Counted from the first letter of the stretch, positions 33,735-47,139 are shown. The stretch: DNA of 64,000 nt from Nitrosomonadales bacterium (GCA_036676355.1 JAKFDA010000078.1:199-64198); one strand, 5' to 3'. The notes: generated from the sequence alone by a model not told the origin. Numbers and translations: made by a program.

Positions 33735-34901
33735 TCAAGCCGCCCTCAAAGCATCGACGATGCGCAAACGCGCCGCGCGCGTGGCCGGCAGGACGCCGCC
33801 GGCAAAGCCCATGACCAGAGCGAAGATGAGCGTTTTTGCAACGATGCCGGGCGTCAGCGCAAAGGAAAAAGCGAGTTCCGAAAACGACTGCCAGTTCATG
33901 GTCGAGATATGCACCAGTTGCATGAACGAGGCGAGCACGACGCCGATCACCCAGCCGACCAGGCCGAGCGCCAGCGATTCGAGCAGGAAGGCGCCGAGTA
34001 TGCCGCGTCGTCGGAATCCGAGCGCACGCAAGGTGCCGATTTCGGCGGTCCGATTCGCCACTGCCGCGTACATCGTAATCATTGCGCCGATCATCGCGCC
34101 GATGGAAAAGATGACCGACAGCGTGACACCGAGATAACTGATGAACGTGGACATCGTTTTGGACTGGTCTTCGTAGAACGTGCGCTCGCGCTTCACCTCC
34201 ACCGGCAGGCGCGGGTCTTTTTCAAGCTCCGTTTTCAAGCGCTCGTAGGCGCCCGCGTCGGCGAGTCGCGCCACAACGGTCGAATAGGACTGACGCCGGA
34301 ACGTCTGCATCAGTTGTTCGGTATCGCCCCATACCTCCGAGTCGAAAGCGGCCCCGCCGGCATCGAACACGCCGACCACGATCCACTCGCGCCCGCCGAA
34401 GCGCAGGCGCTGCCCCAGACCTGCGCCTTCGAATCGTTCCGCCACGCTGCGTCCCACGACGATTTCCGCCGTGCCGAAGCGCAACATGCGACCGTTGACA
34501 ATGCGAACTTGCGGGCGCAACGCAAATCCCGCTTCATCGATGCCGCGCGTGGTGATGTTGGTCAGCACACCCGTACCGCGCTTGGGCAGGGTGATGAGCA
34601 CGACCGTTTCCTTCGACACCAGCGGGCGGCCATCCGGGCCGAGCGCAACGTTGGCGTTGCTTTCGATAATCAAAGCCTGATTACGCTCGATCGAGCTTTG
34701 CACTTCGGTGCCCGCCGAGCGGCGCGTCACGATGACGTTGTCCGGCTGACCGGTCGCCACCAGCGCCGCGCGCAACCCGGCGTCGAGCATGAGCACCGCG
34801 GCGAAGACGAAGACCACCAGCGCCATGCCGCCTGCGGTCAGCGCGGTGGTCAGCTTGCGCGCCCAGAGATTGCGCAGCGAGTAGGAAACCGGAATCGGCA
34901 T
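33735..34901 (-). CDS. MacB/FtsX-family ABC transporter permease (second permease of the operon at 43285-46427)
   Basis: YSLRNLWARKLTTALT, RTAEIGTLRALGF, four TM segments. Confidence 0.9.
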   Translation of the reverse strand: MPIPVSYSLRNLWARKLTTALTAGGMALVVFVFAAVLMLDAGLRAALVATGQPDNVIVTRRSAGTEVQSSIERNQALIIESNANVALGPDGRPLVSKETVVLITLPKRGTGVLTNITTRGIDEAGFALRPQVRIVNGRMLRFGTAEIVVGRSVAERFEGAGLGQRLRFGGREWIVVGVFDAGGAAFDSEVWGDTEQLMQTFRRQSYSTVVARLADAGAYERLKTELEKDPRLPVEVKRERTFYEDQSKTMSTFISYLGVTLSVIFSIGAMIGAMITMYAAVANRTAEIGTLRALGFRRRGILGAFLLESLALGLVGWVIGVVLASFMQLVHISTMNWQSFSELAFSFALTPGIVAKTLIFALVMGFAGGVLPATRAARLRIVDALRAA

Positions 34902-35084
34902 TCGCGTTATCGGATTTTGATTTCGACAAGCATGCCCGAGCACGTGGCAAGCGTCGATGAGTGATTGTTATCGTCACAGCTATCCGCCCGCCTCGCTGTC
35001 TCCGACACACGACACCTTTGGTCTTTACAACGACATGCCACGCTATATAGTTGGCCCACAAGACGCAATGAGAACGGGGAACGA

Positions 35085-35456
35085 GTGCAGCAAACAAAGG
35101 CGTCCAAAATACTGGTGGTCGACGATTGTCATGATTCGGCCGATGGCATGCGCTGGATCCTCAGCACTTATGGTTACGAAGTGGATGTGGCCTACGATGG
35201 CAACGCGGCCCTTGTCAAAGCCCGGGCGCGCATACCCGATATTGTTCTGCTCGACCTTGCCCTACCGGAAATGGACGGCTATCAGGTCGCCGACGCAATG
35301 AGAAGCGAAGCTGGACTCCGCGTGCCGATTTTCGTGGCGGTTACCGGCTACGGGCGCGAGCACGACAAGCGACAAAGCGCCGCAGCGGGCTTCAAACACC
35401 ACCTCACCAAACCGATCGATCCGCTCGCGCTGCTGGAAACGCTCGCCAACGTTTAA
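35085..35456 (+). CDS. single-domain response regulator (receiver only)
   Basis: ILVVDD, LLDLALP, AVTGYG, HLTKP; start uncertain (GTG 35085). Confidence 0.85.
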   Translation: MQQTKASKILVVDDCHDSADGMRWILSTYGYEVDVAYDGNAALVKARARIPDIVLLDLALPEMDGYQVADAMRSEAGLRVPIFVAVTGYGREHDKRQSAAAGFKHHLTKPIDPLALLETLANV

Positions 35457-35498
35457 TCAAGAAAGCGCCTGGCGAGGCGCCCCCGGCGCGCGCGCGGC

Positions 35499-37427
35499 TC
35501 ACAGCAAAGGCACGCCCGCAACCTTTTCATCGCGCTGCTTCGCGCGGCTGAAGCGCACGCTGTTGCGCATCATGTCGGCCATCTCAACCCGACGGTTCGT
35601 ATAGAACTCGTCCGCATCGTCCACCGGCGCATCCGTGCCCGTGTGAATGGAAACATCGAACACGTTGCCGCTTACTCGCGGGAACTTGGCCTTGTACGCG
35701 TCGTCGCGGTATCCCAGATCGGTCCACGAGGCGAATACGGTGTACTTGCGCACCTGCTCCGCATCGAGCAGATCGTAGCCGAGCGAATAGTCGCCCGCCG
35801 GATTGCGCACGCCGAGCAGCGGCATGAGCGTCGCCGGAATATCGAGATGGCTGGTCATGCGGTCGATTTGCGCCGGTGCAACGCCCGGCACATGCAGCAC
35901 CAGCGGGACGCGCACCTGCTCCTCGGTGAAATCCGAGTTATGGCCCCAACGCCCTTTTTCCATGAACTCTTCGCCGTGGTCGCCGGTGATGATCACGATG
36001 GTGTTGTCGAGCAGTTTCTCGCGCTTGAGGTAGTCGAAGACGCGCGCGAACTGGCTGTCGAGATGATTGCAGGCATTGATGTAACGATTCCTGATCAGAT
36101 CGATGTCGCGCTCGAGATTCATGGTGGCGTAGTTCAGATCATCGAGGTATGGCTTTCGGATCGCCGACTCCGGCGGGAACTCGTAACGCGCATGCGGCGA
36201 TTCGAAGAACATGAAGCGCATGAACGGCTTGTTCGGATCGCGCCGATCGAGCGACGCCAGCAACTTAGCCACGTTGCGCTCGTCGCGCCGCCAGGCCGGG
36301 CCGTTCGGATCCTCGTGCAACGCATCGGTTGATATTTGCGAAAAGATCGTCCGGTCGAATTCCGGATAGGTGAACTTCGCGCTGGTATACGCCTCGATCT
36401 GATAGCCCTGCTGCTGCAGCACGTCGATCAGCGCGGGGCCGCGTCGCTGCGCCAGCATCGGGAACCAGTAATTGCCGTACAGCCCGAAGAACATGCTGAA
36501 GAGGCCCATGCGCGTACCGTTGCCGCCGCTGTAGTGACGTTGGTAATGCACGTTTTTCGCGGCAAAGGCGGCGGTGTGCGGCATGATCTGCGGGTCGAGC
36601 ATGTCCCAGCGCCACGACTCGGCCACGAGCCAGACGACGTTGAGCGGTTTAGCCGGCGCCTCGACACGCAGCGGCACGGCCGGATAATTCAATTGCATCG
36701 TCTCGCCGGATGCCACACGCACTGCCTGCCGCTGCGGCGCTTCATAGCCGAGCTTCTTCGCCAGCTTGCGGAATGTGGTCGGCTGATAAAGCGGAAACGC
36801 TTTCGACGCGAGCACGATCGGCGCGTCATGCTTCATGAACGCCACGCCGAATGCGCCGTGTTGCACCAGCGCGACGATGAGGAGCGACGCGAGCGCCGTC
36901 CGCGCAAACGCCCGGCGTCCGCCGAAGCGCTCCCAACGCGGCTGCACCAGGCGTCGCGCGCCGGCAGCCAGTCCGGCCTGCAGCAGGACGATGGCGACTG
37001 CCAACGCAATGGCCATATAAAGCGCCGACCCGCTGCTGCCCATCGATTCCAGTCCGCCCGGCGTGGTCAACAGATTCCAGACGAAGCCATTAAGGTGGAA
37101 GCCGTACATCCGATAGATCTGGCCGTCCACAAACAACGCCATGCACAACAGACTGAACAGCGCCACTGCGACAGCGAGGCTGGTCACGACGGCGCGTGCC
37201 GGCGTCATAACGCGTTTGAGGATTGTCGCGGCGATTCGCGCCACTGCCCAAACCACCAACGTGTAGAACGCACCATAGACAACGAAGGCGGCGTGGCTGA
37301 AAAGCGCCGCCTGGGGCGTGCTCTGCGGCACCGCGCCGAGGTGAACCGACAGCGCGAGCAGCACGAGCGGGTAGTTAAGTGCGGCGTAAAGGCCCAGCGT
37401 CGCGCGCAGACCGGTGTCGTGTTTCAT
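35499..37427 (-). CDS. membrane-anchored sulfatase-fold protein, DUF3413/YejM(PbgA)-like
   Basis: About five N-terminal TM helices; AESWRWD, HYSGGNGTRMGLFSMFFGL, ESPH, ITGDHGEEF, GHNS, SHLDIPAT. Confidence 0.85.
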   Translation of the reverse strand: MKHDTGLRATLGLYAALNYPLVLLALSVHLGAVPQSTPQAALFSHAAFVVYGAFYTLVVWAVARIAATILKRVMTPARAVVTSLAVAVALFSLLCMALFVDGQIYRMYGFHLNGFVWNLLTTPGGLESMGSSGSALYMAIALAVAIVLLQAGLAAGARRLVQPRWERFGGRRAFARTALASLLIVALVQHGAFGVAFMKHDAPIVLASKAFPLYQPTTFRKLAKKLGYEAPQRQAVRVASGETMQLNYPAVPLRVEAPAKPLNVVWLVAESWRWDMLDPQIMPHTAAFAAKNVHYQRHYSGGNGTRMGLFSMFFGLYGNYWFPMLAQRRGPALIDVLQQQGYQIEAYTSAKFTYPEFDRTIFSQISTDALHEDPNGPAWRRDERNVAKLLASLDRRDPNKPFMRFMFFESPHARYEFPPESAIRKPYLDDLNYATMNLERDIDLIRNRYINACNHLDSQFARVFDYLKREKLLDNTIVIITGDHGEEFMEKGRWGHNSDFTEEQVRVPLVLHVPGVAPAQIDRMTSHLDIPATLMPLLGVRNPAGDYSLGYDLLDAEQVRKYTVFASWTDLGYRDDAYKAKFPRVSGNVFDVSIHTGTDAPVDDADEFYTNRRVEMADMMRNSVRFSRAKQRDEKVAGVPLL

Positions 37428-37503
37428 GTATTTCCCGAGGAGATTGGGTCGCGTGCATGCGGTTATCGTGCCTACGATCGCACTGGGCGCCGTACCGGCC
37501 CGA

Positions 37504-37535
37504 CGCCGGTCGCCGGTCGCCGGTCGCCGGTCGCC
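37504..37535. repeat. tandem heptamer (CGCCGGT)x4
   Basis: cgccggt repeated four times plus cgcc, in the SDR-sulfatase spacer. Confidence 0.85.
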
Positions 37536-37597
37536 ATTTAGATGACTTTTCCCTGATGAGCTGCTTAAGGACTGAGACGACGCGCGCGATTGCGGAA

Positions 37598-38428
37598 TCA
37601 CGCCAGATCCTGCGGCGCCGGATGCACCGCCGCAGTTCGCTCGACATTACCCTTGCTCTCCAGCGCGGCGCGCGCCGCACGCGCCTGAGAGCGCAACAGG
37701 CGGTCGAACAGGCGCGGCAACATGCCGTTGAGACGGGCGAACGACGACTCGACGAAGCCGAACGTCCGCTCGGACGCGTCTTCTTCGATCGCCCGCACGA
37801 TATGCATCGCGACGACTGCCGGATCGTCGAACACCATTCCCGTTCGTTCGGCATAGCGATGCACCGCGACGCCGTTCATCGGCGTACGCGTGGCGCGCGG
37901 CGCGACATACGTCACGCCGACACCGCGGTCGGCAAGCTCGCGCCGCAAGGCTTCCGAAAATCCGCGCAGGCCGAACTTGCTCGCCGCGTACGTCGTGAAA
38001 TAGGGAAAGCCCATCGCACCGAATACCGAGCCGACGTTGACGATACGGGCGCCCGCAGTCAGATGCGGCAGGACGGCGGCGATCAACGCCATCGGCGCAA
38101 TGAGATTCACCGTGATCAACCGGTGTATCGACGACGCTGTCTCGTTCTCGAAGCAGCCGAATTCCGATACACCGGCGGCATTGACCAGCAGATCCAGACC
38201 GCCAAGCCGTTGCAACGCGTTCGCCACGAGCTCGGCGTGGCCGCCGTTCGACGCGAGATCGAACACCATCGCATCGCCATGCACGCGCGCGGCAAGCCAT
38301 GCCAGGCGCTCGCGATCGCGGCCGACGAGCACCAATCGCGCGCCTTTGGCCGCCAGTTGTTCGGCGAGCGCACGACCGATGCCACCGGTTGCGCCGCTAA
38401 GCAGCACTCTCGCACCGTGAATCTTCAT
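37598..38428 (-). CDS. short-chain dehydrogenase/reductase
   Basis: SGATGGIG, NAAG, NVGS, YAASK; ATGA overlap with the upstream gene. Confidence 0.93.
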   Translation of the reverse strand: MKIHGARVLLSGATGGIGRALAEQLAAKGARLVLVGRDRERLAWLAARVHGDAMVFDLASNGGHAELVANALQRLGGLDLLVNAAGVSEFGCFENETASSIHRLITVNLIAPMALIAAVLPHLTAGARIVNVGSVFGAMGFPYFTTYAASKFGLRGFSEALRRELADRGVGVTYVAPRATRTPMNGVAVHRYAERTGMVFDDPAVVAMHIVRAIEEDASERTFGFVESSFARLNGMLPRLFDRLLRSQARAARAALESKGNVERTAAVHPAPQDLA

Positions 38429-39102
38429 GCCGCCTCCCTCGCGCACGGCACGCGCTTCGCATCGAGCCCGCGAAAGATGTCGCCGTAGAGCTTGTAGAAC
38501 ATACGTGCGCCATGGGCGATGGCCCGGCGGTCACCCGGTTCGTCGAGCTTATTCACCAGGCCGGCGAAATACTTGATGTGGGCCTGATCGAGGCTTCCGT
38601 GCGAACTGAGATAACTGAATGCGTTTGCGGGCAGGTCAAGCGCCGCGCGCAAAGCTTCGGCGGCCCTGCTCGCCACATTGACGCTCGTCCCCTCGAGCAC
38701 CAACACCATGCCGAGAAACGCCACCGGGTTGCCGCGCGCGATCGTGTCATATGCGTAAGCCACCATGAGTTCGACCGGTGCGGACGGCGTGCCTCGTCGC
38801 ACTTGCTCGGCATCGACGCCGCATGTGCGCAGATCGTTGAGTATCCATTCCTGGTGTCCGCGTTCCTCGTCGATATATTCGGACATCGCCTGTCGCAGCC
38901 ATTCCAGTCGCTCGGGCAGGCGTGCGCCGCATGCCATCAACAACGGCAGCGTGTGTTTGACATGGTGGTAGGCCTCGGTCAGAAACGCGGTGTATTCGAC
39001 CAGCCCGAGACGACCGGCCGCGCCGTCGCGCAGAAATGGGATAGCGAGCAACGCGTCGCGCTCGCGTTGCGTCGCCGCGAGCAGTTCGTCGTGATAAGTC
39101 AT
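38425..39102 (-). CDS. heme-oxygenase-like (TenA/PqqC-like) iron-containing redox enzyme
   Basis: EAYHHVKHT, EERGHQEWILND, VLEGTS, SHGSLDQAH: His/Glu pattern of HO-like diiron proteins. Confidence 0.85.
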   Translation of the reverse strand: MTYHDELLAATQRERDALLAIPFLRDGAAGRLGLVEYTAFLTEAYHHVKHTLPLLMACGARLPERLEWLRQAMSEYIDEERGHQEWILNDLRTCGVDAEQVRRGTPSAPVELMVAYAYDTIARGNPVAFLGMVLVLEGTSVNVASRAAEALRAALDLPANAFSYLSSHGSLDQAHIKYFAGLVNKLDEPGDRRAIAHGARMFYKLYGDIFRGLDAKRVPCAREAA

Positions 39103-40532
39103 GCGTTCTCCGTTTTGTAGAGTTGGTCGATGCGGTCGCCGTAGCGCGTAAGCAGCGCCTCGCGCCGCAATCTGCCATTCGAAGTCGCCTCTCCATTGCC
39201 AAGCGAGAAGGCGGCATCGGCTGCAATCCAGTGGCGCACTTGCGCGTAATCCGGCAGCGCGCGGTTCGCCGCTGCGATCGCGACGGCGAGGTGCCGCGAA
39301 TCACGCGGGACGATCACGGCCGATAGCCACGGTTTGCCCTCGCCGAAGACGGCGGCCTGCGCAATGGCGCGTTGCGCGGTCAATTCGCGCTCGACCCACT
39401 CCGGCGCGACATTGCGGCCGAAGGCAGTCACCAGCATGTTGCGGCGCCGCCCCGTGAGGTGCAGGAAACCGGCCTCGTCGATATAACCGAGGTCGCCGGT
39501 CGGCCACACTTCGCCCGCCGCTTCTCGATCGCCTACATAACCGAGCGTCGTGGCGCCCGCGACACACAGTTCGCCATCGCGCGCGATTTCGAGCGCGGCA
39601 TGCGGCAGCACACGACCGACGCTACCGTCGCGACAGGCCCGCGGCGTGTTGAGCGCCACCACTGAAGCGCACTCGGTCAAGCCATAGCCTTCGTAGACAG
39701 GTAGACCGCAAGCGCGCGCGCGCCGCAATAGCGCTACCGACAACGGCGCGCCGCCCACCGCGATGAAGCGCAAGTCGGCAACAGATTCGTGGCCGTCTTC
39801 CAGCGCCTCGACCAGACCGACGAGCATTTGCGGCACGAGAATGGCGGTCGTGGCTCGATAACGACGCAGCGCTTCGAGCAGCACCACGCCGTCGAAGCCG
39901 CCCATGCCGCGCAATCCAATTCGTTCGGAGGGCAGGACGACAGTGCGTGCGCCGGCAATGCGTTGCGCATACAGGCCGCCGATGTTTTCCAGCAACGTTG
40001 CGAGCGGCAACGCGCACAGATGCACATCGTCGCGTTGAAGTTCGCAGGCTGCAGCCAGCGACGCCGCCACCATTTCCATCGCGCGCGCGCTGAGACAAAC
40101 GCCCTTCGGCTCGCCGGTGGTGCCGGATGTATAAGTAATTTTCGCCGTACCGGGCGGCAGCGCACGCGGCGTCGACACGATGCGCGTTGCACACAATGTG
40201 TGACCGGCGATTTCAATGGATTCGTGGTGAATCCTGTGCAACGGCGGATGCTCGACGGCATCGCGTCGATCGCTTAAAACCCAATCCGCGCCGCTGTCGT
40301 GCAATGCATGCCGACGTTGCGCGGGGGTGAAGAAACGCGGCAGGGGCACGATCGGTATTGCGCTCTCCAGCGCGGCGAAATCGGCGATCGCCCAGGCCGG
40401 GCTGTTATCCATATCGAGCGCGAGCACGCGCGGCCGCATGCGCTCGTACGCCCGGTGCATTCGCTCGATCTCGCCTGCTGCTTGCTCCGCTGTAAGCGCA
40501 TCATGCGGCCCGATCAGCGCGAGACCCTTCAT
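39099..40532 (-). CDS. AMP-binding (adenylate-forming) enzyme
   Basis: YTSGTTGEPKG, YEGYGLTE, TGDLG, GRRRN; ATGA overlaps on both sides. Confidence 0.92.
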   Translation of the reverse strand: MKGLALIGPHDALTAEQAAGEIERMHRAYERMRPRVLALDMDNSPAWAIADFAALESAIPIVPLPRFFTPAQRRHALHDSGADWVLSDRRDAVEHPPLHRIHHESIEIAGHTLCATRIVSTPRALPPGTAKITYTSGTTGEPKGVCLSARAMEMVAASLAAACELQRDDVHLCALPLATLLENIGGLYAQRIAGARTVVLPSERIGLRGMGGFDGVVLLEALRRYRATTAILVPQMLVGLVEALEDGHESVADLRFIAVGGAPLSVALLRRARACGLPVYEGYGLTECASVVALNTPRACRDGSVGRVLPHAALEIARDGELCVAGATTLGYVGDREAAGEVWPTGDLGYIDEAGFLHLTGRRRNMLVTAFGRNVAPEWVERELTAQRAIAQAAVFGEGKPWLSAVIVPRDSRHLAVAIAAANRALPDYAQVRHWIAADAAFSLGNGEATSNGRLRREALLTRYGDRIDQLYKTENA

Positions 40533-41146
40533 GCCGCCTTCTCGCAGCACCTGTTCAAGGCAATCCGTGATTCACGTATCGATACGGCACACACGCGCGG
40601 ACCGCTGCGGTAGTAGTCACCCCAATCGTGGCGCGCCTCTTCAGGCAGGGCTTCGAGTGATGCCGGGCCGAGATCGACCAGCGGAATACCGAGCCGACGG
40701 AACGAATTGCGTAACGCCGCCACCCCGGTGAATACCACCCACTCGAACGGCGCGGACGACAGGTAGTGCGTCAGGGCGGCGATCAACTCTCGCGCAGTGG
40801 CGGGAGATGCCGCCGCGAGATTACCGACTTCGACAACGCACGCACGGCTAACCCTGCCGCCCATCGCGCTCGACAGTGCCGCTTCGACAGGCTGCTCGAG
40901 ATAGGACTCGAGGAACAACCGTCGCTCCTGCTCGGCGCCACGCAAACCGCAAGCGATGATCAGCCGACCGTGGCCATCGCGCGCCCCCAGCAGCGTGGGC
41001 ATGAACTGCCGAATGCGCGCTTGATGTGCGGCGCGAAAATGTGCCGCGATAAACGCTTCGGCCTCTTTACGACTCGTACCGATTTGCGCAACGAGACAAC
41101 GTCTCGGCACCGCTTCGCGCTCGGCGCGCGCCTTCCCGTATTCCAT
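40529..41146 (-). CDS. 'thermostable hemolysin' (delta-VPH-like) family protein
   Basis: FMPTLL, LFLESYLEQPVE, VVEVGNLAA, WVVFT, LRNSFRRLG, WGDYY motifs. Confidence 0.85.
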   Translation of the reverse strand: MEYGKARAEREAVPRRCLVAQIGTSRKEAEAFIAAHFRAAHQARIRQFMPTLLGARDGHGRLIIACGLRGAEQERRLFLESYLEQPVEAALSSAMGGRVSRACVVEVGNLAAASPATARELIAALTHYLSSAPFEWVVFTGVAALRNSFRRLGIPLVDLGPASLEALPEEARHDWGDYYRSGPRVCAVSIRESRIALNRCCEKAA

Positions 41147-41214
41147 GCAGCCTCCTGCTATCCCGTGGCAGAGGCATGTTAAGAATCAGGAGCGCGAAGA
41201 AATGTCGTCGAAGT

Positions 41215-41230
41215 GTGAAGTTTCCGTGAA
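41215..41230 (-). promoter_or_regulatory. candidate OmpR/ColR-type direct repeat upstream of the hemolysin-like gene
   Basis: Minus strand TTCAC-ggaaac-TTCAC (11-bp period) in an AT-richer spacer. Confidence 0.5.
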
Positions 41231-41282
41231 TATGAAAAACGTACGGGACTACAGCATCGGGATCCCGGGCGAGGCGCGCCGC

Positions 41283-42557
41283 TCAGGCCGACTCGGATGG
41301 TCCGAAATCGACGGTGAACGTCGTGCCTTCGCCAGGCTGGCTGGCAACCCCGATGCTCCAGCCGAAGCGAGTGCAAAGTCGCCTGACAATCGCCAGTCCG
41401 ATGCCACTGCCTTCACGCCGGGCATTACGACCACGAAAGGAACGCTCGAAGATATGCGGCACGTCCTCGGCGGCGATACCGATCCCGGAATCGTTGATGC
41501 TCAGCGCGTGTCCGTCGTAGCGCACCGTGATGCGGCCGTGATCGGTATAGACGAGCGCGTTCTTCAGCAGGTTGCCGACGAGCAATGCCAGCGCGGTACG
41601 ATGCACCGACAACACCGCGCCCTCGGGAATATCGATCTCCAGTCCGATCCCTTTGGCCTCCAACGCCGAATCGAATTGCGCTGCAATCTCGGACACCATT
41701 TCGCGCAAGGCAACCGATTCGCGCGCGGCCATCGGCGCTTCGCGCGCCAGCAGCAGCAGAGCCTCGACCACTTCGGTCATGCGATCGGTGCCTTCGAGTA
41801 CACGTTGAACACGCGAACGCGATTTTTCGTTCAACGACGCATCATTCAGCAACAGTTCGCAGCTCGATTTGATAATCGTCAGCGGCGTACGCAGTTCATG
41901 GCTGACGTTGGCGGTGAACTCCTTTTCCCGGCTCAGCAATTCGGTGACGCGATCGGCATACTCGTCCAGCGCCTGGGCGAGCGTGACCACCTCCGCGTCG
42001 CGATAATCCGGCGCCAGCACGGGCTGCGGCGCCGCCGGGTCGAGGCTCGCGACACGCCGGGACAGATCGGTCACCTGCCGCACCAGCCGGCCCGCCACCC
42101 AGACGCCAGCCCACACCAGCACCGCAATGGATACGACAATACCCAGCAACATGAAGATGCGGAATTCGTTGACGCGGTCTTCGTGCCGGGTGGCGTCGTA
42201 AAGCAGGTAGTAGACGCCGTCCTGCGTCGGCTGCACATCGACGTGGAGTTCGCGCTCGCCGATGTAGAACTCATGCACCCCGGAATCGAGACCGCGCAGA
42301 TACTCGGGTAGCGCGGCGGCGTCTTCCGGCGTGCGCACGATATAGCGAATCAAACCGCCCGGCACATCGCCCGGCGCGCGACTGAGCACGCGCTCGGCTT
42401 CGTCGAGCAGAATGCGATCGATGAAATTTTCTTCCTGATATTCGACGATGAACAGCACCGCGATCGTCTGCAGCACCAGCAGGAATGCGCCGACCACGAT
42501 GACACCGATCGCCACCCGACTACGCAGGCCGATGCGGGCGGAATTGACGTTCGCCAC
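41283..42557 (-). CDS. ColS-like sensor histidine kinase
   Basis: Two TM segments, HAMP, SHELRTPL, NLLKNA, DSGIG, GIGLAIV. Confidence 0.9.
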   Translation of the reverse strand: MANVNSARIGLRSRVAIGVIVVGAFLLVLQTIAVLFIVEYQEENFIDRILLDEAERVLSRAPGDVPGGLIRYIVRTPEDAAALPEYLRGLDSGVHEFYIGERELHVDVQPTQDGVYYLLYDATRHEDRVNEFRIFMLLGIVVSIAVLVWAGVWVAGRLVRQVTDLSRRVASLDPAAPQPVLAPDYRDAEVVTLAQALDEYADRVTELLSREKEFTANVSHELRTPLTIIKSSCELLLNDASLNEKSRSRVQRVLEGTDRMTEVVEALLLLAREAPMAARESVALREMVSEIAAQFDSALEAKGIGLEIDIPEGAVLSVHRTALALLVGNLLKNALVYTDHGRITVRYDGHALSINDSGIGIAAEDVPHIFERSFRGRNARREGSGIGLAIVRRLCTRFGWSIGVASQPGEGTTFTVDFGPSESA

Positions 42558-42558
42558 G

Positions 42559-43251
42559 TCAGCGCCGCTCGACCGACGCCAGGCGGTAACCTACGCCGTG
42601 CATGTTCTCGATCGGATCGGCGGCGCCGGCCGCCTGAAACGCGCGGCGCAGGACGTACATGTGGCTACGCAGGGTTTCGCTGGAAGGCAGCCGTTCGCCC
42701 CATACCGCCTGCTCGAGATCGGCGCGGGTATAGACGCGCGCAGGCTGGGTCAGCATGAACTCGAGCAGGCGCAACGGCTTGGGCGGCAGGCGCACCGGCG
42801 TACCGTTCACCGTCACCGACAGCGTGACGGGATCGAACACGATCGCGCCATGCCGCAACGCTGTGAGTGCGGCGCGACCGACCCGGCGCTTGTGCAGCGC
42901 CTGCAGACGCGCTTCGACTTCGGCGAGCGCGAAGGGCTTGGCAAGGTAATCGTCCGCGCCGCTATCGAAGCCTTCCAGCTTGTCTTCCAGCGTATCGCGC
43001 GCCGTCAGCATCAACACCGGCGTATCGCGCTGCGCATCCTCGCGCAGTCGGCGACATAGCATCACGCCGTCGATTCCCGGCAGATTGAGGTCGAGCACGA
43101 TGGCGTCGAAGTCCTGCGTCACGGCCAGATGCAATCCCGTCACGCCGTCGAACGCCGCATCGACCGTATGACCATGCGACTCGAGGTAATCGCATAGATT
43201 GGTGGCAATGGGGCTTTCGTCTTCGATGATGAGGATACGCACGGTTACCAC
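42559..43251 (-). CDS. ColR-like OmpR-family response regulator
   Basis: DGVTGLHLA, LDLNLPGIDG, RLREDA.RDTPVLMLTARD, LRSHMYVLR resemble Pseudomonas ColR; start 43251 or 43242. Confidence 0.9.
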   Translation of the reverse strand: MVTVRILIIEDESPIATNLCDYLESHGHTVDAAFDGVTGLHLAVTQDFDAIVLDLNLPGIDGVMLCRRLREDAQRDTPVLMLTARDTLEDKLEGFDSGADDYLAKPFALAEVEARLQALHKRRVGRAALTALRHGAIVFDPVTLSVTVNGTPVRLPPKPLRLLEFMLTQPARVYTRADLEQAVWGERLPSSETLRSHMYVLRRAFQAAGAADPIENMHGVGYRLASVERR

Positions 43252-43284
43252 GGCAAAATTCGGTAACGCGCATTCTAGCCGCGC

Positions 43285-44448
43285 TCAACCGACGAATCGC
43301 AACCCGTCGACAATCTTCACTCGGGCGGCGCGCCGCATCGGCAGCAGCGCCGCCGCCAAGCCGACGATCAGCGCGCAGCCGGCCTGCAGCGCAACCGTCG
43401 ACCGGCTGATTTCGAATATCGGAAACAGCGTCCCCATCTGTGCGGCAAACCAGTGTCCGATCGGGAAGGTCAGCGCGATGCCGAGCACGGCACCGGCCAG
43501 GGCGATGGCCAGCGATTCGCCGAGAATCAGGCCGCCGACGAAAGACGGATGGAATCCCAGCGCCTTCAAAGTGGCGTATTCAGGCATGCGTTCGCGCGCC
43601 GTCATCGACATCGTATTCGCCATGACCGCGAGAATGATGGCGATGACGACAAAGGAAACGAAACGCACGGCCACCACAATCGCCTCGGTCTGTTTGGCGA
43701 AGCCGATCTGGAACGCGCGCTCCGTCTCGGTGAGCGTTTCGGCGGCAGAGTTGCGAAACAGCTCATCGATGTTGCGGCCGATCTCCGCAGCGCGTCCGAT
43801 GTCGCCGATCGAGACGACGAATACACCGACCTTGTCGGCACGCTGCGGCGCGCGCTTCTTGAGCGTCTCGTTGAGATATTCGTAGTGGAAGAACATCAGC
43901 GAGGTGTCCGTCGACGGCTGCGCGCCGTCGTAGATCGCCCGCACGGTGAATTCCCAGTTGCCGGGGAAAATGTCGCCCTGCAGCGGAAGCGTGTCGCCGA
44001 TGCGAAAACCGTGGTTGACGGCGAGCTTGCGGCCGATCACCGCGCCCTTGCGATCGCGCATGAAGGCGCGAAACTCCTCGTCTTCGAGCAGGTACTCTGG
44101 ATACATCGCGAAATACGGTTCGGGGTCGACCGCGAACCGCGGAAAGAAATTTTCCATGCTTGTATCGCGATAAACGCCGCCGAACCAGTTGGCTGCGGCG
44201 ACGCGTTCAACGCCGCCGACGGCGCGAATCTTTTCGCGATAGTTGATCGGCATCGGGAAAATCAACGATACCGCGTTGCGCGTCACCAGGCGATTGGCCG
44301 CCGCGGCGTTCGCGCCCGCGTACCACGCATCCACAATGGTCTGCAGCAGGCCGAAGGACAGAATCGCGACCACCAGCCCGAGCACCGTCAGCCCGCTGCG
44401 CAGCTTGTGCCGCAGACCGTTACGCAGAATGAGTTTGAAAAAGTGCAC
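43285..44448 (-). CDS. MacB/FtsX-family ABC transporter permease
   Basis: RNGLRHKLRSGLT, NWFGG, RERMPEYATLKALGF. Confidence 0.9.
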   Translation of the reverse strand: MHFFKLILRNGLRHKLRSGLTVLGLVVAILSFGLLQTIVDAWYAGANAAAANRLVTRNAVSLIFPMPINYREKIRAVGGVERVAAANWFGGVYRDTSMENFFPRFAVDPEPYFAMYPEYLLEDEEFRAFMRDRKGAVIGRKLAVNHGFRIGDTLPLQGDIFPGNWEFTVRAIYDGAQPSTDTSLMFFHYEYLNETLKKRAPQRADKVGVFVVSIGDIGRAAEIGRNIDELFRNSAAETLTETERAFQIGFAKQTEAIVVAVRFVSFVVIAIILAVMANTMSMTARERMPEYATLKALGFHPSFVGGLILGESLAIALAGAVLGIALTFPIGHWFAAQMGTLFPIFEISRSTVALQAGCALIVGLAAALLPMRRAARVKIVDGLRFVG

Positions 44449-44457
44449 GGCGCGAGA

Positions 44458-45216
44458 TCAGGCGTGACGATTCGCGCGTACCGAACGCTCCGCCACGCCC
44501 TCTGCGGTGGAAAGCTCGCCCTTTTCCAGATACATGATGGCGTGCGCCCGATCGGCCGCGCGCTTGTCATGGGTGACCATGATGATGGTCTTGCCGAGTT
44601 CCGCGTTCAGTCGATCGAGCAGGCCGAGAATTTCTTCGGCCGATACGCGATCCAGATCTCCGGTCGGTTCGTCGGCGACTAATAAGGTGGGATCGGAAAT
44701 CACCGCGCGCGCGATCGCCACCCGCTGCTGCTGTCCGCCCGACAATTCGGACGGCAGGTGATCCATGCGATCGGCCAGGCTGACCAGATCGAGCGCCATT
44801 TCCACGCGCTCCCGACGTTCGCGGCGCGACAGCGAAGTCAACGTCAGCGGCAATTCGACGTTCTCGAACGCGGTGAGCACCGGCATCAGGTTATAGAACT
44901 GGAAAATGAAACCGACGTTCGCCGCGCGCCAGTCGGCCAGTTCGGCCTCGGTCAATTGCGTGATGTCGATGCCGTCGATGATCACTTCGCCCGAGTCCGG
45001 TTTGTCGATCCCGGCAATCATGTTGAGCAGCGTGCTCTTGCCCGAACCGGAAGGCCCCATCAGGCCGAGAAAATCGCCGGCCCGGATATCGAGGTTGATA
45101 TCGGTCAGCACCGATACCGTCTGTCCGCCGCGTCGATACGATTTGACCAGGCTGCGAATCCTGATCAGCGGCGCGCTCGCTTCATTGCCGGTCGGCGCAT
45201 TCACGACATCATTCAC
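44458..45216 (-). CDS. ABC transporter ATP-binding protein (LolD/MacB type)
   Basis: GPSGSGKS, LSGGQQQRVAIARA, ADEPTG, VTHD. Confidence 0.95.
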   Translation of the reverse strand: MNDVVNAPTGNEASAPLIRIRSLVKSYRRGGQTVSVLTDINLDIRAGDFLGLMGPSGSGKSTLLNMIAGIDKPDSGEVIIDGIDITQLTEAELADWRAANVGFIFQFYNLMPVLTAFENVELPLTLTSLSRRERRERVEMALDLVSLADRMDHLPSELSGGQQQRVAIARAVISDPTLLVADEPTGDLDRVSAEEILGLLDRLNAELGKTIIMVTHDKRAADRAHAIMYLEKGELSTAEGVAERSVRANRHA

Positions 45217-46427
45217 GGCTTCTGCTCGATCGTGACCTTGCGGCCGTCAAGGCTCGCATCGAGCGGTTTCAGCACCACGCGATCGCCGGGCTGCACCCCC
45301 CGCACTTCGAGCAATTCGCCGAGCGTCGCGCCGGTCTGCACCGGCACCCGCTCGGCGCGACCATCCTTGATGCGTAACACCGACGCGGAGGCATCGTCAC
45401 GCAATACCGCCTCGGCCTGCACCGCCGTGACCGGTTTGCGCTCCTCGGGCTCGAGCGCGCGCTCAAGAAATGCGACCTTGGTGCTCATATCGGGCAGCAC
45501 GCGCTCATTGCGTTCGTTGAAACGAATCTTCACCAGCACCGTCGCCTTGGCGCGATCGACCGTCGGCACAATGCGATTGACCTGCCCGCCGAAACGCTCG
45601 TCCGGCAGCGCGTCGAGTTGGATCTCCACCGGCTGGCCGACGCTGATCTTGCTCAGCGAAGACTCCGCCACATCCGCTTCGACTTCGAGCGTGCTCATGT
45701 CGGCCATGGTGACGACCGCGCCCTTGGTATCGAGCGCACTCGAGAAGGGCGTGATGTTGTCGCCCACATTGGCATTCTTGGTCAGCACGACGCCGTCGAA
45801 CGGCGCCCGGATGAGCGTCTGATCGAAGCCGACCTCGGCGGCTTCGAGATCGGCGCGCGCGACCGCCAGCGAGGCCTGCCGGCTCGCCAGCGCCGCCTTG
45901 GCGATTTCCATGCGCGCACGCGCGGCGTCGTGCGCCGCTTCGCTGATATAGCGCTTGCCGATCAATTCCTCGGAGCGCTTGAACGCGCGCAGGGCATCGC
46001 GTAAATCCGCGCTCGCCTGCTCCACATTCGCCTGCGCAACCTTGACGCCGGCCTGTGCCTGCTCGCGCGTCGCCGCGACATCGCGATTTTCCAGTCGCGC
46101 GATGATCTCGCCCTCTTTCACCTTGCTGCCTTCGGCGACGCCGAGCCACTCCAGACGCCCGGTCGCTTTCGACGCGATCGAGGCTTTGCGCTGCGCGACG
46201 ACGTAACCCGTCGCGTTCAGCACGGTGATCGCCTGTGCCGGATAAGCGGTCGTCACGCTGACCGCCTCCACGGTCACCGCGCCGACATAACGCTGCGCCA
46301 GAATCGCCGCGGCAATGAGCAACACCGCGGCGGCGGCAATCCACCAGCGCCAGCGTGTACGTTTCGGCGTGCCTCTGCCGGCCGCGCCGCGATCGATACT
46401 GAGTCGGGAAAGTTCGGATGCGCTCAC
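45213..46427 (-). CDS. efflux periplasmic adaptor (membrane fusion protein)
   Basis: N-terminal TM, ATGYVVA, lipoyl halves (EGSKVKEG, IRAPFDG), coiled coil; probable GTG start 46427. Confidence 0.9.
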   Translation of the reverse strand: MSASELSRLSIDRGAAGRGTPKRTRWRWWIAAAAVLLIAAAILAQRYVGAVTVEAVSVTTAYPAQAITVLNATGYVVAQRKASIASKATGRLEWLGVAEGSKVKEGEIIARLENRDVAATREQAQAGVKVAQANVEQASADLRDALRAFKRSEELIGKRYISEAAHDAARARMEIAKAALASRQASLAVARADLEAAEVGFDQTLIRAPFDGVVLTKNANVGDNITPFSSALDTKGAVVTMADMSTLEVEADVAESSLSKISVGQPVEIQLDALPDERFGGQVNRIVPTVDRAKATVLVKIRFNERNERVLPDMSTKVAFLERALEPEERKPVTAVQAEAVLRDDASASVLRIKDGRAERVPVQTGATLGELLEVRGVQPGDRVVLKPLDASLDGRKVTIEQKP

Positions 46428-46554
46428 AAGATGGGGATGTCGGAAAGAAAGTAGTGAGCCCTGCGTGCGACATGCAGGGCTGGGCATTATATCTGCGCCG
46501 CGACGGCGCCCCGACCGGATATGGACGCAGATGCGGCAGGTAATTCGCGCCGTA

Positions 46555-47139
46555 TCAGCGCAATCGAAAACGCACCGGCAACAGGATGGTGCGACCGGCC
46601 ACGGTCGCCGATAAGGTGCCGAGCTCACGCACCGCGCGCAACGCCGCAGCATCCAGAATCTCGTGACCGGAACTGCTTGCGACGGCGGCACTCCGCACAT
46701 GTCCGGCGGCGTCGATTTCGAGCAGCACGATCACCTCGCCCTCCAGCCCCTGCTCCAACGCTTCGGGCGGATAGAGCACCACCTCGGCAATCCGCTGTTT
46801 GGCATCGTCGACGGTCGGGCGTTGTCGCTCCACCGGCCGTGCGGCCGCCCTTGCCGACCTGGCTTCATCGGGTTTCGCTCGGCGCGACGGCGGCGCCGCC
46901 ACTTCCTCCGGCGGCAAGGTGTTCTTGATCAGGCCGTCGTCGGGCGTTGCCGTGACATCCTGCGCGCCCGGCAACAGGCGCGCGTTGAGCGGGATCGACT
47001 CGACCGGCGCGCGCATATCGAATGACGGCAGGCGCGACGCAACGCCGAGCACGCTCGCATGCAGAAATACCGACGCAACGACGGCGAGACCGACTCTCCA
47101 ATTCGCCTGCCACGGCGGCCTTTGACTTTTGCTGTCCAC
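46555..47139 (-). CDS. TonB-like energy transducer
   Basis: TM with SxxxH (SVFLH), Pro/Ala linker, YPPEA...SSGHEILDAAAL...PVRF; start uncertain. Confidence 0.85.
   Translation of the reverse strand: MDSKSQRPPWQANWRVGLAVVASVFLHASVLGVASRLPSFDMRAPVESIPLNARLLPGAQDVTATPDDGLIKNTLPPEEVAAPPSRRAKPDEARSARAAARPVERQRPTVDDAKQRIAEVVLYPPEALEQGLEGEVIVLLEIDAAGHVRSAAVASSSGHEILDAAALRAVRELGTLSATVAGRTILLPVRFRLR

Follow-up and report, generated by a model that had tools for sequence, protein, structure and literature searches.

Capsule and O-antigen loci carry variable gene sets between conserved genes, and these sets are exchanged by homologous recombination. Xer-dependent elements and dif modules carry cargo without a recombinase of their own, with short inverted sites around a 6-bp core. 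Mobile insertion cassettes (MICs), in the passages of PMC4337579 that describe them, consist of passenger genes between inverted repeats related to those of insertion sequences (IS); they contain no transposase, are mobilised by a cognate transposase, and show target duplications. The same passages give 3-19 kb for the MICs derived from TnXax1 in Xanthomonas, name two-component genes among the MIC passengers, and cite MIC231 of Bacillus cereus as an example (PMC4337579). The present analysis concerns an 8.37-kb block of eight genes in a 64,000-nt stretch of Nitrosomonadales bacterium DNA (contig C78:199-64198; the whole stretch is called the window). The block lies between the two permease genes of an ATP-binding cassette (ABC) exporter operon, and is bounded by short direct and inverted repeats. 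The source assembly (G000) comprises 3.07 Mb in 104 contigs, with 61.6% G+C. The genomes compared include G001 and G002 from the same genus; G148, G077, G118, G134, and G026 from genus g25; and G025 from genus g24.

On the minus strand, the gene order is a TonB_C protein gene, an HlyD-type adaptor, an ABC ATPase, permease-1, the eight inner genes, and permease-2. The adaptor, the ABC ATPase, and the FtsX/MacB_PCD permeases identify the host operon as a MacB-type tripartite ABC exporter (Pfam). The direct repeat GCATTC is found at 34898..34903, where it contains the start codon of permease-2, and at 43270..43275, 9 nt from the stop codon of permease-1. Directly inside these copies are two 16-nt arms, GCGTTATCGGATTTTG at 34904..34919 (plus strand) and GCGTTACCGAATTTTG at 43254..43269 (minus strand). 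As an inverted repeat, the arms are identical at 14/16 positions, and each of the two mismatches is a transition. After deletion of 34904-43275 in silico, the permease-1 TGA is followed on the minus strand by 11 nt and the permease-2 ATG. An earlier reading of this DNA from its sequence alone (the sequence-only reading) had described the same repeats, the same restored junction, and eight inner genes without a transposase or integrase; all of these were confirmed. No transposase or integrase domain was identified among the eight genes by Pfam and NCBIfam, and the intergenic gaps of 165, 42, and 136 nt are too small to hide a transposase gene.

We favour the explanation that the block is an old composite module in a multi-allelic slot, which was remodelled by recombination and carries scar-like end repeats (probability about 0.54). 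As judged from the genome comparisons, the long residence of the cargo, its composite make-up, the occupation of a single spacer by several alleles across three genera, and recombination within the cargo are firmly established. The module is composed of a two-component pair, a four-gene acyl-modifying set, a YejM-like membrane enzyme of the sulfatase family, and an orphan receiver. The end repeats would represent the decaying footprint of one staggered-cut insertion of the transposase type, which left the 6-bp direct and the 16-nt inverted repeats. This last part, with the block as a dead MIC-like element, is tentative, and we place it a little below even odds.

The ancestral state of the operon was deduced from related loci. 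A 704-nt piece of permease-2 matched 22 of 61 related genomes, its own included. Among the 17 best relatives' loci, permease-1 stands directly before permease-2 in 12. In the other five, G002 contains the cargo, G001 contains the receiver only, G025 and G047 have no permease-1 in the 1.5-kb flank, and G058 gave partial matches and was left unclassed. Among the metagenome loci found with permease-2, permease-1 is directly upstream in 68 of 80, with the four-gene order that relatives also show; the other 12 have no more than 440 nt upstream and are not judgeable. In these metagenome loci, the gap between the permeases lies between -1 and 229 nt, and its median is 11 when the stop codon is counted. 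The metagenome scan yielded no relative closer than 75%, and no filled site among the 68 judgeable loci. Since the permeases are adjacent in relatives and in metagenome loci, the four-gene operon is ancestral, with 11 nt as the typical spacer. On this comparison, the cargo block was inserted into the ancestral operon; the insertion is lineage-restricted, and occupies a spacer of ~11 nt between two FtsX/MacB-type permease genes. Empty sites were found only in other genera; within the genus, two full sites and one receiver-only site are present.

A few loci showed other arrangements. In G047 (L187 11073-13989), no permease-1 was found within 2.9 kb upstream of the permease-2 homologue, which may be another arrangement or another filled slot. 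One of two metagenome contigs, L131 1-225 or L137 225-428, has a short open reading frame before permease-2. It may resemble the four-helix-bundle proteins of 23S rRNA intervening sequences. In the other of these two contigs, permease-2 is preceded by no more than the final 60-odd codons of a frame resembling permease-1. A hairpin split by the insertion was also considered as the source of the arms. It was not supported, as the empty spacers are mostly 2-20 nt.

Comparison with two further genera showed that the same spacer is occupied by several gene sets. In G148, the genes between the permeases are the regulator, the kinase, the T_hemolysin-family gene, the AMP-ligase, the oxidase, and the short-chain dehydrogenase (SDR), without the sulfatase-family gene and without the receiver. 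Between G148 and the window, the cargo proteins are 50-76% identical and the flanking proteins 64-79%. In G077, the regulator and kinase are followed by a Methyltransf_25 protein and a PEMT-family protein. In G025, the methyltransferase and PEMT genes are present alone. This Methyltransf_25 plus PEMT-family membrane methyltransferase cargo (L174 8943-10390 and L188 16640-18120, in two genera) is 84% identical in DNA between G025 and G077, with flanks at 81-82%; like the window cargo, it points to lipid modification. The spacer is empty in G118, G134, and G026, which are genus-mates of G148 and G077. The spacer acts as a multi-allelic slot. Across related species it is empty, or contains two methyltransferases, the receiver alone, or the regulator and kinase together with one or the other enzyme set. 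The view of the cargo as one unit, held by the sequence-only reading, is contradicted, because parts of the cargo, and also other genes, fill the same spacer in other species. The G148 matches to the kinase and the SDR (L063 8307-9492 and 12389-13142) are split over two frames; these may be pseudogenes or assembly indel errors, and G118 has many such breaks.

The flanks of the slot agree with taxonomy. For the joined permease proteins, G148 shares 86.6% identity with G026 vs 70.8% with G000, and permease-2 is single-copy in each of the five genomes searched (G000, G001, G002, G026, and G148). A sliding-window comparison of G148 and G000 showed no rise in similarity beside the junction that would mark an imported tract. 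The flanks of the filled G077 and the empty G118 are mostly 93-100% identical per 100 nt, at least as close as either is to G148. The regulator genes of G148 and G077 are 95-97% identical in their first 400 nt; beyond this point, identity falls to 61-87%, which marks a recombination breakpoint inside the cargo. Alleles would be changed by homologous recombination in their conserved parts, and also by deletion.

Within the genus, the sister genome G002 contains all eight cargo genes, on two overlapping contigs. Along window positions 33735-45216, its identity, taken per 200 nt, stays within 80-96% and shows no step at either end of the cargo. The shared cargo without an identity step shows that the block was present in the common ancestor of G000 and G002. 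With the block shared at this divergence, and with the arms no longer recognisable in G002, a recent insertion was not supported. The difference at 4-fold degenerate sites between G000 and G002 is 0.218 overall. By gene, it is 0.31 for permease-2 and the SDR, 0.25 for permease-1, 0.24 for the regulator, 0.17 for the kinase and the oxidase, 0.16 for the T_hemolysin and AMP-ligase genes, and 0.12 for the receiver (heterogeneity among genes, chi-square p = 1e-5). This threefold spread from gene to gene hints at recombination between the G000 and G002 lineages after their split.

The third genome of the genus, G001, is more distant. Its flanks are ~79% identical to the window, with a 4-fold difference of 0.47 and a 4-fold Jukes-Cantor distance of 0.735. 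Only the receiver gene lies between its permeases, together with the conserved promoter-like block of that gene; the receiver protein is 69% identical. Neither arm nor GCATTC was found at the G001 junctions. A 9-mer in G001 is common to the right end of the block, and was considered as a remnant of the right arm. Its score was reached in 44 of 5000 shuffles; the match is suggestive only, and MAFFT aligned the stretch otherwise. G001 may be a deletion derivative.

To estimate how often the end repeats would arise by chance, 80-nt windows were drawn from the same genome and paired at random. None of 150,000 such pairs had an inverted repeat of at least 14/16 with a 6-bp direct repeat directly next to it. 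The best random pairs reached only 13/16 (5 of 150,000), and the binomial estimate is ~1e-6 per window pair. At the level of a single locus the repeat pattern is not chance, although a scan of very many windows could still yield one such pattern. A generic repeat finder did not rank the arm pair among the 25 longest of 2082 inverted pairs; the signal lies in the position, with the direct repeat abutting at gene junctions, and not in the length. Staggered-cut insertion by a transposase-type enzyme is the textbook source of such repeat geometry. The survival of the permease-2 start codon is also explained by such an insertion, because the target duplication retains it.

The best surviving alternative is that no transposition took place. 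The block would have been assembled stepwise at a hot spot by illegitimate and homologous recombination, and the repeats would be a rare coincidence arising from substitutions in the leaders. The pattern is present in this species only, and both arms lie within presumed 5' leaders: the left arm within that of permease-2, and the right arm between a TAGAAT -10-like hexamer and the GTG of the regulator gene. In the left GCATTC, four of the six bases belong to the start codon and the first base of a proline codon; in the right GCATTC, four bases are inside the TAGAAT hexamer, which is conserved in another genus. Partial look-alikes are also found, 'GAATTT' after TAGAAT in G148 and G077, and 'CGAT..CGC' before permease-2 in G025, and the many windows scanned can surface a 1e-6 event. 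However, the probability of the pattern is near that value for each junction pair. Both mismatches are transitions, as decay from identity predicts, and the look-alikes are weak (G025 with 10/16, marginal by eye). This explanation is considered unlikely, but it deserves serious weight.

The junctions provided further information on how the split operon might be expressed. On the permease-1 side, the spacer and the TAGAAT hexamer are common to the window and the filled alleles of g25. The spacer is partly present in the empty g25 site of G134, which marks it as old target DNA. The distance from TAGAAT to the regulator GTG is 6 nt in g25 vs 29 nt in the window, the right arm included. On the permease-2 side, alignment revealed a promoter-like block of ~36 nt at 34925..34960 (minus strand), with TCGACG, 17 nt, and CATGCT; a consensus scan made no call. 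This block is common to all five filled alleles in three genera (also L063 13270-13310, L174 10440-10480, and L188 18150-18190), and it is missing in G001. The left arm sits between this block and the permease-2 start codon. With a -35-like element, a 17-nt space, and a weak -10-like element, the block may be an internal promoter for permease-2, as its conservation suggests. The cargo might be transcribed by read-through from permease-1, or from the TAGAAT -10-like site before the regulator gene. Permease-2 would be transcribed from the conserved block at the left edge of the cargo. Pairing of the two arms in RNA was considered and rejected; the mismatches on the coding strand are A-C, and wobble pairs form only on the strand without an expected transcript.

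The sequence-only reading had proposed a non-autonomous cassette, which would be mobilised in trans by an element bearing matching ends. In this form, the whole 8.37 kb would have transposed as a unit into an empty GCATTC and would still be movable. The terminal inverted repeat of 14/16 with an exact 6-bp duplication, the lack of a transposase inside, the preserved start codon, and the empty sites in other genera all favour it. Partner ends were searched for at several levels. In the 3.07-Mb assembly, no further copy of the 16-mer with shared flanks was found at up to 3 mismatches. In 317 genomes of the family, exact matches of the 16-mer were limited to the two arms (the tallies over this set include G242, which is flagged as unpublished; nothing rests on G242). 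With one mismatch, there were 21 scattered single sites vs 17 for a reversed control pattern. No motif at up to 4 mismatches was found near the homologous genes in 18 related loci. Draft assemblies often miss IS copies, so the absence of partner ends is not proof. Nevertheless, the sequence-only reading had itself named the absence of the 16-mer from other insertion boundaries as a result against it, and the lack of cognate ends across the family weighs against a mobilising element. The two flanking IS copies of a composite transposon are also absent; each end is no longer than 16 nt, and IS genes are lacking.

The other comparisons also disagree with a single cassette. Other genera have homologous parts of the cargo at this spacer but no arms, and the receiver is alone in G001. 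The left-edge block, which would be inside the element, is also found in alleles with other cargo. Moreover, the block is older than the split from G002, and no excision joint was found in the contigs of four soil runs. What stands of the earlier proposal is an insertion relative to the ancestral operon, without a transposase, and with end repeats beyond chance; what does not stand is a partner element and a single unit. The insertion is not a recent one. The one-cassette explanation is therefore improbable. A mobile-cassette mechanism is possible for the origin of the block, and unsupported for present-day movement.

Several results weigh against the favoured explanation, in particular against the transposition scar. 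The ends have no further copy in their own genome or in the 316 relatives. In G002, GCATTC is kept on both sides, yet the arms form no recognisable inverted repeat; relative to the arms of the window, they show 10 differing positions and 2 gaps out of 32, which would mean a lopsided decay. The junctions of G002, G148, G077, and G001 were scanned for arms matching at 11/16 or more beside a direct repeat of 4 bp or longer, and none were found. In G148, the 6 nt between TAGAAT and the regulator start leave no room for an arm. The age of the arms is also in conflict with their state. If they had decayed neutrally since before the split from G001, the 32 arm bases of this lineage should have undergone ~12 changes, as estimated from the 4-fold distances; only 2 mismatches are seen (Poisson estimate ~6e-4). 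If the arms were younger than this split, the receiver gene inside them should be absent from G001, yet it is present. If one founding insertion had given rise to all filled alleles, decay of the arms would be expected in all of them. This conflict might be resolved by partial constraint on the arms in their role as 5' leaders, by small deletions that removed the arms elsewhere, by a site-specific mechanism, or by coincidence. In addition, the slot picture rests on a handful of draft genomes, several of them with frameshifts. It needs either many precise losses or repeated gains at one spacer, which the data do not separate.

Two related explanations involve activities encoded by the host. In the first, the spacer might be a docking site, at which a host-encoded site-specific or transposase-like activity inserts, swaps, and cleanly removes transposase-free modules made up of a two-component system and lipid- or acyl-modifying enzymes. 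The repeats of the window would then be the best-preserved ends; exporter and cargo would work as one functional unit, in which the cargo makes or modifies a lipid-like export product. This is a speculative explanation with a small probability. In the second, GCATTC would be the crossover core and the arms the half-sites of a circular module, which was integrated by a host tyrosine recombinase in an Xer/dif-like manner. Tyrosine-recombinase integration is expected to leave just such a geometry, a core repeat whose inverted arms face inward. Such a mechanism would explain the repeated use of one spacer and the clean losses; close relatives can have this spacer either occupied or empty (G077 vs G118, ~95-97% identical in the flanks), and the cargo has no recombinase. 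However, the outer chromosomal half-sites are unlike the arms (3/11), and the other filled alleles are without arms. A dif consensus had no match in the assembly, even with 7 mismatches allowed, so that no host site was available for comparison. Integration of this kind is thus even less probable than the docking site. The arms might instead be functional, as an operator pair for the cargo regulator or as the ends of an invertible segment, since each lies just upstream of a gene start (regulator and permease-2); this is very improbable, because they are not conserved in G002 with the same genes, no similar motif is near the homologous clusters in the 18 loci, and the block contains no invertase gene.

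Environmental sequences were also examined. The stretch or part of it is present in 18 runs from 8 studies, all from soil where labelled. Contigs were examined from four soil runs of four studies; contigs cannot reveal rare forms. The left junction is bridged by contigs of X2 (34786-35233) and X15 (34611-35068), and the right junction by contigs of X7 (42885-43881, without difference) and X10 (43199-43516). These bridging contigs, from independent studies, show the filled arrangement to be stable in natural samples. In the left arm, one contig of X10 lacks single nucleotides at 34908 and 34915, which would fit an unconstrained sequence. The joint 34903/43276, which would mark an empty site or excision, was not found in the contigs of these four runs. 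In run X7, one low-depth contig joins 35442 to 43391 with 26 other letters; it may be a receiver-only allele of a close relative or a chimera.

The genes of the operon and the cargo were assigned by Pfam, and partly by NCBIfam. All are on the minus strand, except the receiver gene. The HlyD/RND-type periplasmic adaptor (45213..46700; Pfam, NCBIfam) and the ABC ATPase (44458..45216; Pfam, NCBIfam) precede permease-1 (43285..44448; FtsX + MacB_PCD by Pfam), which has its TGA stop at 43285-43287. Permease-2 (33735..34901; MacB_PCD + FtsX by Pfam), the last gene of the exporter operon, has its ATG at 34901. The first cargo gene past permease-1 encodes an OmpR-type response regulator (42559..43251; Pfam), which is at the same place in G148 and G077. 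It is followed by a sensor histidine kinase (41283..42557; Pfam), a T_hemolysin-family (PF12261) protein (40529..41146; Pfam), an AMP-binding, acyl-activating enzyme (the AMP-ligase; 39099..40550; Pfam, NCBIfam), a haem-oxygenase-like iron-containing redox enzyme (the oxidase, Haem_oxygenas_2; 38425..39102; Pfam), and the SDR (37598..38446; Pfam, NCBIfam). The next gene (35499..37601; Pfam, NCBIfam) encodes a membrane enzyme with DUF3413 and Sulfatase domains, which is YejM/LapC-like but under the curated cut-off. The orphan response-regulator receiver gene (35085..35456, plus strand; Pfam) faces inward, and is the sole cargo gene also found in G001. A promoter-like site for the receiver gene at 35024..35051 (plus strand) matches 10/12 consensus positions and lies in a block conserved in G002 and G001. 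The possibility that the receiver is an inverted duplication of the upstream region of the regulator was rejected; it is only ~34-35% identical to the regulator homologues of two other genomes. The 42-nt gap at 35457-35498, between the convergent receiver and sulfatase-family genes, contains a G+C-rich palindrome that could be a two-way terminator; a simple terminator scan made no call. The G+C content of the cargo is 0.58-0.67 per 600 nt, and is not distinct from the flanks.

The cargo genes differ in their distribution. The sulfatase-family gene is found in only 2 of the 317 family genomes, G000 and G002 (E<=1e-100). Oxidase homologues with >70% identity are found in only 3 of the 317 (G000, G002, and G148), and the T_hemolysin-family protein in 8 of 201 family genomes. 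In two further genera, close regulator-kinase pairs are found by themselves. The order T_hemolysin, AMP-ligase, oxidase, SDR (window 37598-41146; loci L055-L067) is also present in stand-alone clusters, often beside a regulator-kinase pair. These four-gene clusters are found in other family members, three Aeromonas species, gammaproteobacterial metagenome-assembled genomes (MAGs), and a Xylophilus MAG, with 36-60% identity. A contig scan with the T_hemolysin protein identified only distant stand-alone clusters (36-46% identity, in Aeromonas, gammaproteobacterial MAGs, and the Xylophilus MAG), with no donor and no ends. A literature search on the four-gene cluster found nothing relevant among the papers listed. 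To our knowledge, this widespread T_hemolysin/AMP-ligase/haem-oxygenase-like/SDR set has no known product, and the present comparison suggests a functional tie between it and MacB-type exporters.

If the end repeats are a true transposition scar, the locus would be a clean case of a regulatory-plus-biosynthetic module that entered an operon without breaking its neighbours, and was then fixed and remodelled. The comparative picture carries more weight: one 11-nt spacer has at least five gene sets in three genera, with a promoter-like block that may restore the expression of permease-2. The knowledge of mobile DNA is unchanged unless movement is demonstrated.

In comparison with the known systems, the block resembles the Xer/dif modules in having no recombinase or transposase of its own, and in the short inverted sites that bracket a 6-bp core. 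It differs from them in that a dif consensus has no match in the assembly, and that the outer half-sites are unlike the arms. As far as the MICs are described in the passages of PMC4337579 considered here, the block shares with them passenger genes without a transposase, short inverted repeats, a target duplication, a size within 3-19 kb, and two-component cargo. Unlike the MICs of those passages, which have IS-related ends and usually several copies or sites, it is a single copy whose ends match nothing in the 317 genomes, and its cargo is partly shared with alleles that are without these ends. The block is thus MIC-like, and possibly a dead member of that class; it is not filed as a MIC, since that class is tied to a cognate IS. 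Unlike the capsule and O-antigen loci, the slot is inside an operon, in an 11-nt spacer between paralogous permeases, and has transposon-like ends in one species. Like these loci, it shows different gene sets at one place, presence and absence within genera, and a breakpoint inside a shared gene.

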